A stretch of DNA of 11,286 bases from a virus (taxonomy: Duplodnaviria; Heunggongvirae; Uroviricota; Caudoviricetes), in the IMG/VR virus record IMGVR_UViG_2600254997_000012, one strand, 5' to 3'. Shown in pieces: positions 9,507 to 10,439 of this stretch. A program made the position numbers and the translations under genes. The notes under the pieces were generated by a model that saw only the letters and a list, made by a program, of their open reading frames with translations, was not told where the DNA came from and did no database searches. Position 1 is the first letter of the stretch, and every line of letters starts with the position of its first letter.

Positions 9507-10439
9507 ATGAGTAAGTTCGGGTGTGATATGAGTAGGCAAATTACTGTTTTCGATGACACATCACAGTTAACATTTGATGATTTCGCTAGAGAAAACGGTG
9601 TTACCTATTGGTTTGCATCTGATTTAGCGATGATGCTTGGATATAATGGCATGGATCAGATATTGAAAGCCATTAACAAAGCTACATCTGTATGTGTGAG
9701 CCTCGATATCCCTGTATACGATAACTTCATCCAGATGCCTTCAGAAAATGCGAAAAATGACTTTAAATTAACTCGTTTCGCTTGTTATCTGATTGTAATG
9801 AATGGTGACATCAGCAATCAAAAAGTTGCAAATGCACAAGCTTATTTTGCTGGGCTCGCAGCAGAAATACACACTACATATCATAACCATGACGCAGTTA
9901 ATCGAGTTTATTTGCGTGGCGAGATTACATCTAGAGAGAAAACTCTCAGTCATGTAGCCCATAAACACGGAGTAGTCGACTATGGTCTATTTCAAAATGC
10001 GGGCTACCGTGGGATGTACAATATGAATCTCTCACAGTTGAAAGCTCGAAAAGGCCTAACTAAAAAAGATGGAACGATGCTTGACTTCATGGGAAGCGAA
10101 GAGCTCGCGGCCAATATATTCAGAATTACACAGACAGAAGCAAGAATCAGAAACCAGAACCTGAAGGGACAGTCTCAACTAGAGAATGCTGCTGAGACCG
10201 TAGGGAGATCTGTTCGCAATGTAATGATTTCTAACACTGGAACAGCCCCTGAAAACATAAAACTTTCCCAAGAAAAAATTCAGAAAGTTAGAAGCAGCAT
10301 TAAGAAAACTCATAAAGCCCTAGCAAAGCACGACCAAAAAAACCATAAATGCATACCCCGGCCTCAGCGCCGGGTTTTCTTTGCCTCACGCCCCCACCTA
10401 AAGACACATAACCAAATGTATTTATTGAAAAATAAATAG
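9507..10439 (+). CDS. Bro-N domain protein, DinD-like (310 aa) in the rex position downstream of cI
   Basis: RBS AAGGGAAAA before ATG; N-terminal YWFASDLAMMLGY is Bro-N/KilA-N-like; TRFACYLIVMNGD and DFMGSEELAANIFRITQTE resemble E. coli DinD as I recall it. The last ~25 codons run through a terminator hairpin, so the true C-terminus may be shorter. Confidence 0.6.
   Translation: MSKFGCDMSRQITVFDDTSQLTFDDFARENGVTYWFASDLAMMLGYNGMDQILKAINKATSVCVSLDIPVYDNFIQMPSENAKNDFKLTRFACYLIVMNGDISNQKVANAQAYFAGLAAEIHTTYHNHDAVNRVYLRGEITSREKTLSHVAHKHGVVDYGLFQNAGYRGMYNMNLSQLKARKGLTKKDGTMLDFMGSEELAANIFRITQTEARIRNQNLKGQSQLENAAETVGRSVRNVMISNTGTAPENIKLSQEKIQKVRSSIKKTHKALAKHDQKNHKCIPRPQRRVFFASRPHLKTHNQMYLLKNK
10357..10383 (+). 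terminator. Intrinsic terminator-like hairpin at the 3' end of the Bro-N gene
   Basis: CCCGGC-ctcagc-GCCGGG followed by TTTTCTTTG on plus strand. Confidence 0.45.

Follow-up and report, generated by a model that had tools for sequence, protein, structure and literature searches.

Gene content of the slot between cI and N

The window analysed here is the whole 11,286-nucleotide stretch of DNA in IMG/VR virus record IMGVR_UViG_2600254997_000012 (Caudoviricetes), which carries the immunity and early region of a lambdoid prophage in an orientation inverted relative to the lambda map. A plus-strand gene of the window, which occupies the slot of lambda rexAB between the repressor gene cI and the PL/N region, encodes a homologue of the Escherichia coli protein DinD with an N-terminal Bro-N domain. 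This gene is best explained as a lysogeny-phase accessory ("moron") gene in an exchangeable cI-PL/N slot, and an anti-phage role, which we infer from analogy with related proteins, is plausible. An open reading frame (ORF) of 310 amino acids (aa) is present at 9507-10439 (+), 80 nt after the cI stop codon (9426) and upstream of N, with all three genes on one strand. The features of the cassette are as follows.

9427-9506 (+): spacer of 80 nt between cI and the gene, with the Shine-Dalgarno sequence AAGGG at 9495-9499
9507-10348 (+): sequence encoding the "BRO family protein" of the DinD family (280 aa with A8 in place of the A7 run), with the stop codon TAA at 10346-10348
9591-9836 (+): Bro-N domain, aa 29-110 (Pfam PF02498, E 6.3e-9, 36.8 bits against a cut-off of 25.6)
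9852-10229 (+): predicted basic, all-helical C-terminal domain, aa 116-241, which aligns with DdrC's own C-terminal domain, a four-helix bundle
10336-10342 (+): A7 homopolymer; all reference copies have A8, and the lack of one base yields the 310-aa reading
10349-10439 (+): spurious 3' part of the ORF, which runs through the terminator, inside the tIMM/PL module that hundreds of lambdoid and Stx phages have in common
10357-10382 (+): intrinsic terminator with a 6-bp all-GC stem, a 6-nt loop and TTTTCTTT, predicted to end the cI-cargo transcript before PL

The first-pass annotation of the window, which was made from the letters and their ORFs, had placed a 310-aa gene at 9507-10439 in the rex slot between cI and PL, with a hairpin terminator behind it, and had suspected that the C-terminus was an artefact of a 1-bp indel. 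The position, the gene itself and the hairpin (10357-10374) all hold, but the length must be corrected to 280 aa, in agreement with the suspicion about the C-terminus. The homopolymer at 10336-10342 has seven A residues in the window versus eight in 10 of 10 near-identical copies from E. coli genomes (aligned segments of 1301 and 1302 bases, respectively), and the whole gene was found by megablast in only 10 of 5426 complete E. coli genomes. The E. coli reference coding sequence (CDS) comprises 843 bp and encodes a 280-aa protein (WP_000032717.1, RefSeq name "BRO family protein"), of which the C-terminal end is KHDQKKP (KTHKALAKHDQKKP) and the TAA stop codon is equivalent to window positions 10346-10348, 8 nt 5' of the hairpin. 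The last codons of the 310-aa ORF, about 31 in number, are most likely an artefact of this one-base difference. Additionally, profile matches from Pfam, PADLOC, NCBIfam and PHROG all end by aa 278-280, and the coding regions of homologous cassettes all terminate 5' of their own terminator hairpin. Family members are mostly about 265-310 aa long and have the common C-terminal motif THKxLxKxDKxK.

Family membership and conservation

The family identity of the prophage protein can be considered secure on the basis of profile and pairwise comparisons. The NCBIfam model for DinD (NF008573) matched aa 22-278 over profile positions 12-286 of 288 (E 3e-58), with a score of 197.4 bits that lies below the equivalog cut-off of 242, and BLASTP aligned the protein with DinD of E. 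coli K-12 at 33% identity over 258 aa (E 9e-44). These scores indicate a DinD homologue, not an equivalog, and the DinD-like motifs noticed in the first-pass annotation belong to this match. Bro-N was the sole Pfam domain reported for the protein, with 33.6 bits for the corrected 280-aa sequence and thus above the gathering score; of the mixed label "Bro-N/KilA-N-type" given earlier to the N-terminal domain, the Bro-N part was matched and KilA-N was not the Pfam domain found.

The PADLOC model PDLC04919 of the candidate defence family PDC-S13 covered aa 17-278 of the protein and profile positions 7-279 of 281 (E 5.8e-86, 286 bits). DinD of K-12 matches the same model at 2.4e-121, and therefore PDC-S13 is the DinD family. 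A match to phrog_8036, which is of unknown function, was obtained at E 1.2e-146. In total, 2393 relatives were found among 5.8 billion proteins, and 414 family loci from many phyla were confirmed by a pattern scan of species-representative genomes. Purifying selection on the gene is strong, with pS values of 0.73-0.88 (synonymous sites saturated) against pN values of 0.06-0.22.

Transcription signals

The 80-nt spacer behind cI was scanned and contained neither a terminator nor a consensus sigma-70 promoter. At the other end of the cassette, the hairpin CCCGGC-CTCAGC-GCCGGG (10357-10374) is followed by TTTTCTTT, and we take it to be the counterpart of lambda tIMM. In lambda, the cI-rexAB transcript ends at tIMM. 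This arrangement suggests that in the lysogen the gene and cI would be transcribed together from PRM/PRE, with transcription ending at the tIMM-type terminator, in which case the protein would be constitutive in lysogens and not SOS-induced.

SOS control of the prophage gene was considered and rejected. A LexA box (CTGT-N8-ACAG) was sought upstream of 9507 and none was found, while K-12 dinD, used as a positive control, has a perfect LexA box (CTGTATATAAATACAG) 45 bp 5' of its start. The LexA box that controls chromosomal dinD is lost in the prophage gene.

An alignment of upstream regions from related cassettes revealed a conserved AT-rich, extended -10-like element (TGATATAAT/TGATAAAAT) just 5' of the ribosome-binding site. 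Its position corresponds to 9483-9494 in the window and to about 7975-7990 in the related-cassette loci. Judged by its sequence, this element of the relatives could be a weak private promoter or a cis element.

Cargo exchange beside the repressor

The genes that flank the slot, and the cargo found in the same slot of other E. coli prophages, are listed below.

8732-9426 (+): cI-type repressor gene (LexA/S24 family), the upstream neighbour of the DinD-like gene and its presumed co-transcription partner
About 10787-11059 (+): N antiterminator gene, bounding the slot towards the PL operon; in strain A25, the annotation of its counterpart reads "antitermination protein N"
E. coli O55:H7 CB9615, locus coordinates 2406-2998: slot cargo consisting of a DUF1902 gene and a HicA toxin gene
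E. coli LS45, locus coordinates 1955-3006: slot cargo of two genes to which no Pfam or PADLOC family was assigned
ETEC1738, in a related prophage with a different cI, locus coordinates 2156-3013: NYN-domain gene as slot cargo

In O55:H7 CB9615 and LS45, cro is the same, the cI allele (WP_096246228.1) is identical, and the slot holds other cargo. Since cargo is exchanged beside an identical repressor gene, the slot between cI and N is an exchangeable cargo hotspot and the counterpart of the lambda rex slot, and the earlier expectation that other phages would hold other cargo here is matched by the DUF1902-HicA pair, the two hypothetical genes and the NYN-domain gene. On the right, the exchanged segment is bounded at about 10336-10357, where a common module starts in 1344 E. 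coli and 241 phage records. The lambda rex slot is also described as a cargo hotspot in the BstA paper. The two-gene cargo of LS45 is a further candidate for a comparable function.

Close relatives of the protein (52-92% identity), which were found in prophages of Enterobacterales, Yersinia, Providencia, Pasteurella and Microbulbifer, are always encoded directly 3' of the repressor gene and on the same strand. A 92%-identical protein occurs in four prophages that differ in their repressors (221, 243 and 255 aa) and in their replication modules, and the Yersinia protein (81% identical) occurs in three prophages with repressors of 212, 216 and 243 aa. The Providencia (77%), Pasteurella (67%) and Microbulbifer (52%) genes likewise directly follow the repressor gene, as does the Pasteurella-type copy carried by the isolated phage Pmp14. 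Every homologous cassette has its own terminator, composed of a GC hairpin and a T-run.

In the Pasteurella multocida prophage, a few kb past the DinD-like gene (locus 11646-12900), there is a helix-turn-helix (HTH) gene followed by a gene for a 322-aa protein with a weak RVT_1 match. A second Bro-N protein and a KilA-N protein are encoded behind them, and this stretch may hold further defence-type cargo.

Genomic contexts of the wider family

The immediate surroundings of the wider family were scanned at 80 species-representative loci, which yielded 145 immediate neighbours. Seven of these were S24 repressors, 3-4 were type III restriction-modification (R-M) methylases and a handful were transposases, with the remainder mixed. 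Published survey data place dinD-domain genes within type I R-M loci or operons, and describe dinD and RhuM domains together in one gene inside such loci. In Streptococcus satellites, a DinD homologue with 35-37% identity was present in Javan729 (locus 4323-5804) and in about 14 other Javan satellites; it adjoins the first annotated gene, presumably an integrase gene, and RelE-type toxin genes were adjacent in the one satellite inspected.

Predicted structure and possible relation to DdrC

The protein encoded by 9507-10340 was modelled as a monomer with AlphaFold2 from 79 homologues (pLDDT 91.6, pTM 0.85). The predicted fold consists of an acidic Bro-N/winged-helix N-terminal domain (aa 1-121, isoelectric point 4.4) and a basic helical C-terminal part (aa 126-280, isoelectric point 10.2). 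A structure prediction of the C-terminal half had been proposed in the first-pass annotation, and this model gives a helical, DdrC-like domain. In Foldseek, the six best matches were all chains of DdrC, the DNA-break sensor of Deinococcus radiodurans, and were nearly full-length, after which E-values rose to 0.7. Matches to BFVD structures were weak and confirmed only an N-terminal domain of the Bro-N/KilA-N type.

The DdrC sequence was taken from a paper supplement and checked against the Protein Data Bank (PDB), and the DdrC family that we collected (96 proteins) was essentially confined to Deinococcota. Several residues are invariant or near-invariant in both families and in register, namely an H-G pair and, given as prophage protein/DdrC, Y159/Y144, R168/R153 and K179/R164. 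Further pairs in register are K182-G183/R167-G168, D193/D174, E199-L200/E180-L181 and G221/G202. Mutagenesis places R128 and R164 among four DNA-contacting residues in the C-terminal domain of DdrC; they align with lysines K145 and K179 of the prophage protein, and K179 is nearly invariant in the 79-sequence alignment. The same unusual division into an acidic N-terminal and a basic C-terminal domain has been described for DdrC. As a homodimer, DdrC binds nicks or ends in pairs, compacts DNA that is nicked and circularises linear molecules.

According to the model, DdrC is the only significant solved structural relative of the prophage protein, and it seems to be a structurally related but divergent cousin of the DinD family, which is widespread. 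According to both papers on the structure of DdrC, the protein lacks homologues outside Deinococcus, and no report of a relation between DinD and DdrC was found in the literature searched. This link offers ready assays (for binding to DNA that is nicked or linear, for compaction and for RecA strand exchange) together with candidate residues.

Possible functions of the protein

Our preferred explanation, to which we give a little less than even weight, is that the protein is expressed in the lysogen and serves as an exclusion factor that binds to breaks in DNA or to joint molecules. Purified DinD of E. coli reportedly halts RecA strand exchange, removing RecA from duplex-bound filaments, and is said not to act on RecA filaments on single-stranded DNA. 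By analogy, the prophage protein, produced together with the repressor from a transcript that would stop at the tIMM-type terminator as in lambda rexAB, would, like DdrC, act as a dimer at the ends of DNA, at nicks or at joint molecules. Once bound, it would block or strip recombinase filaments on duplex DNA, in the manner of DinD. The target in the lysogen would be the DNA of a superinfecting phage, of which circularisation or recombination-dependent replication would be hindered, and the outcome would be a single-gene exclusion function.

An association with defence is suggested by the full-length match to the PDC-S13 model, by the N-terminal domain in common with PDC-S05/RhuM, and by the homologues near R-M genes and in Streptococcus satellites. 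PDC-S05/RhuM reduced the plating of T7 and T5 about 1000-fold and was protective against T7, T5 and T4 (PMC12881386), and the kinship of the N-terminal domain to this protective protein makes a defence role credible by analogy. The gene had been put forward in the first-pass annotation as candidate exclusion cargo, and the candidate-defence label is retained in view of the PDC-S13 match (5.8e-86).

Several observations weigh against this explanation. The global TM-scores for DdrC were 0.31-0.47 with large root mean square deviations, and the DdrC link is weak in sequence: a HMMER search of the PDB with the family profile returned nothing even at E<=10, and the hhalign profile-profile comparison with DdrC reached E 0.0014 with a probability of 17.7% over 122 columns of the C-terminal domain. 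The activity of DinD on RecA may not carry over at 33% identity. Taken as a whole, the DinD family does not consist mainly of prophage cargo, only the close clade being linked to repressors, and the neighbours of the wider family are mostly ordinary genes, with S24 repressors making up only 7 of the 145. In Riemerella phages of the RAP44 type, the homologue lies among early DNA-metabolism genes, which suggests DNA handling rather than defence. Finally, the literature searched contained no report of a phenotype, expression or binding for the protein or for PDC-S13, and nothing relevant on DinD in phage defence, including the papers on Gifsy GiPD474 and the PIWI paper of Aravind.

An alternative that we consider unlikely is that the protein modulates RecA or the SOS response to the benefit of the host or the prophage. 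Made along with cI, a DinD-like protein would limit RecA on duplex DNA and would thereby tune recombination, survival of DNA damage or the induction threshold of the prophage, as a form of lysogenic conversion. DinD is listed among RecA regulators in a paper citing Uranga et al. (2011), and the similarity of the prophage protein to DinD (33% identity) extends over the full length. DdrC, the relative by structure, functions in DNA repair, most members of the wider family are chromosomal and lie away from defence contexts, and the preceding repressor belongs to the LexA/S24 family, which is cleaved in a RecA-dependent manner. However, the RecA filaments on single-stranded DNA that drive repressor cleavage are those on which DinD is said not to act. 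Moreover, the gene swaps in its slot with toxin-antitoxin and nuclease-type cargo and is also carried by satellites and R-M loci, which is more typical of conflict genes.

A broader scheme that embraces the exclusion function is considered unlikely. DinD, DdrC and the prophage protein might belong to a single superfamily of proteins that sense breaks in DNA or joint molecules, in which the mobile members would be single-gene exclusion effectors expressed with the repressor. The chromosomal, SOS-controlled dinD would then be a domesticated defence copy, and DdrC an offshoot in Deinococcus that was put to a new use in repair.

Should the copy in the prophage confer protection against phages, PDC-S13 would become a validated one-gene defence system and a new type of cargo for the cI-N slot, and a role would be provided for the DinD family, including the E. 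coli SOS gene of unclear function. The RefSeq annotation as "BRO family protein", the PADLOC candidate flag for the family and the hotspot nature of the slot were already known. The gene is a well-defined, cheaply tested candidate with a concrete mechanistic lead, and it holds nothing yet that would surprise a specialist.

Prophage background and integrity of the window

The window is 99.9% identical to a prophage of the enteropathogenic E. coli strain E2348/69, except for an insertion of about 1.3 kb of the IS3 family in the window. Besides the genes described above, the following features were identified, and the nin-region genes are also on the minus strand of the window.

2322-3044 (-): KilAC-domain phage antirepressor (E2348/69 annotation) in the nin region, a second Bro-type gene distinct from the DinD-like gene
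5062-5763 (-): P, early region
5760-6659 (-): O, early region
6692-6988 (-): cII, early region
7108-8417: IS3-family insertion of 1310 bp between cro and cII, with a 3-bp TTG target duplication; absent from E2348/69
7162-7488: orfA of the insertion sequence (HTH_Tnp_1)
7485-8375: orfB of the insertion sequence (rve)
About 8443-8655 (-): cro, early region

The insertion at 7108-8417 presumably resembles IS629. It should sever cII, O and P from PR, and the prophage of the window is therefore probably defective for lytic growth. The cI gene of the window is broken into overlapping ORFs at 8726-9106 and 9052-9426, with one A missing in an A-run near position 9007 or so, and an intact cI of 231 aa ("LexA family protein", WP_096246228.1) is present at the equivalent place in E2348/69 and in strain A25. 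The C-terminal half of the window cI is assumed to resemble the C-terminal domain of lambda cI.

These disruptions raise the question of whether the window copy of the DinD-like gene is truly frameshifted, that is, a decaying gene in a defective prophage whose final two residues are swapped for a 32-residue tail and which yields either a 310-aa product or no stable product. Real decay is conceivable with cI likewise out of frame and with an IS3-family insertion between cro and cII that has no counterpart in E2348/69, but we regard this explanation as improbable. The window differs from E2348/69 by nine indels, all of which are in A or T homopolymers, and by only 3-4 substitutions over about 10 kb. 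The homopolymer indel sites include 396, 457, 6145, 6197, ~8682, ~9007, ~10335 and ~11246. The two indels in gene O are 52 nt apart and offset each other, which is a signature of homopolymer miscalls, and all 10 complete genomes with the gene have A8.

Given that the indels are restricted to homopolymers and that the pair in O is mutually compensating, the 310-aa extension is most likely an error of sequencing or assembly; judged by this pattern, the extension and the split cI are most likely homopolymer miscalls and not decay. The annotation of both in the window should be read as homopolymer artefacts. Because the error signature extends across the window, other ORF boundaries may also be wrong.

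Comparison with known systems

The protein was compared with systems that have a similar N-terminal domain or that occupy the same slot. The RefSeq name "BRO family protein", the occurrence of Bro-N domains in known antirepressors and BFVD matches that include "Repressor domain protein", "Antirepressor", and KilA-N and Bro-N domain proteins would fit an ordinary Bro-N antirepressor or a regulator of the phage lytic programme. We judge this very improbable: Pfam found Bro-N only, with no KilAC or ANT C-terminal domain, and the C-terminal domain is of the DinD/DdrC type. An antirepressor on the same strand as cI, behind an 80-nt spacer that has no terminator, would defeat lysogeny, and a KilAC antirepressor is already encoded in the nin region of the prophage. 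Membership in an ordinary antirepressor family, which the first-pass annotation had named as the outcome that would speak against defence, was rejected on the lack of a KilAC/ANT domain and the linkage to cI.

BstA of Salmonella phage BTP1, to which the gene had been likened at first reading, resembles it in position (downstream of cI and before N), in having its own terminator, in size (307 versus 280 aa) and perhaps in an N-terminal domain of the KilA-N/Bro-N type. The sequence family and the C-terminal half are unrelated, so that the likeness is limited to position, size and, at most, type of N-terminal domain. BLASTP of BstA against the prophage protein gave E 1.8; the PADLOC BstA model detected BstA at 1.9e-124 and had no match to the prophage protein at E<=1; and hhalign of the family profile against BstA gave E 0.094 with a probability of 0.6% over 65 columns, restricted to residues 34-109 of BstA (the KilA-N-like region). 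Membership in the BstA family was rejected on these grounds, and abortive infection of the BstA type, in which the N-terminal domain senses replicating foreign phage DNA and kills the cell while a cis-acting element confers self-immunity, is barely probable here despite the same slot, similar size, private terminator and possible likeness of the N-terminal domain. BstA has aba, a self-immunity DNA element that overlaps the 5' end of its gene; none is known for the prophage gene, where no search aimed at it was made.

Lambda rexAB occupies the same slot, and the transcription logic from cI to tIMM would be the same; the tIMM/PL module behind the prophage gene is homologous to that of lambdoid phages. 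Lambda rexAB differs in comprising two genes, with RexB a membrane protein, whereas the prophage system is one gene with a product predicted to be soluble and of a DNA-binding type. No Rex model was among the PADLOC matches of the prophage protein.

PDC-S05/RhuM has in common with the prophage protein an N-terminal Bro-N-like region (PDLC04871, E 2.4e-10, aa 27-119). Only this domain matches, Pfam finds no RhuM domain in the prophage protein, and the validated protein belongs to another family. The PDC-S13 model of PADLOC matches over the full length; as a computational candidate, it names the family and not a demonstrated function.

E. coli DinD (PcsA, the SOS-induced "DNA damage-inducible protein D"; NF008573) has the same two-domain architecture and nearly the same length (274 versus 280 aa), and both proteins match Bro-N and PDC-S13. 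Its gene is chromosomal with a perfect LexA box, whereas the prophage gene lies behind cI and has none. DdrC (PDB 7QVB, 7UDI and 8U0G) is similar in its predicted likeness of fold, a winged-helix N-terminal domain joined to a helical-bundle C-terminal domain, but has 231 aa and is restricted to Deinococcota, compared with 280 aa for the prophage protein; DdrC forms an asymmetric, domain-swapped homodimer that traps two DNA breaks.

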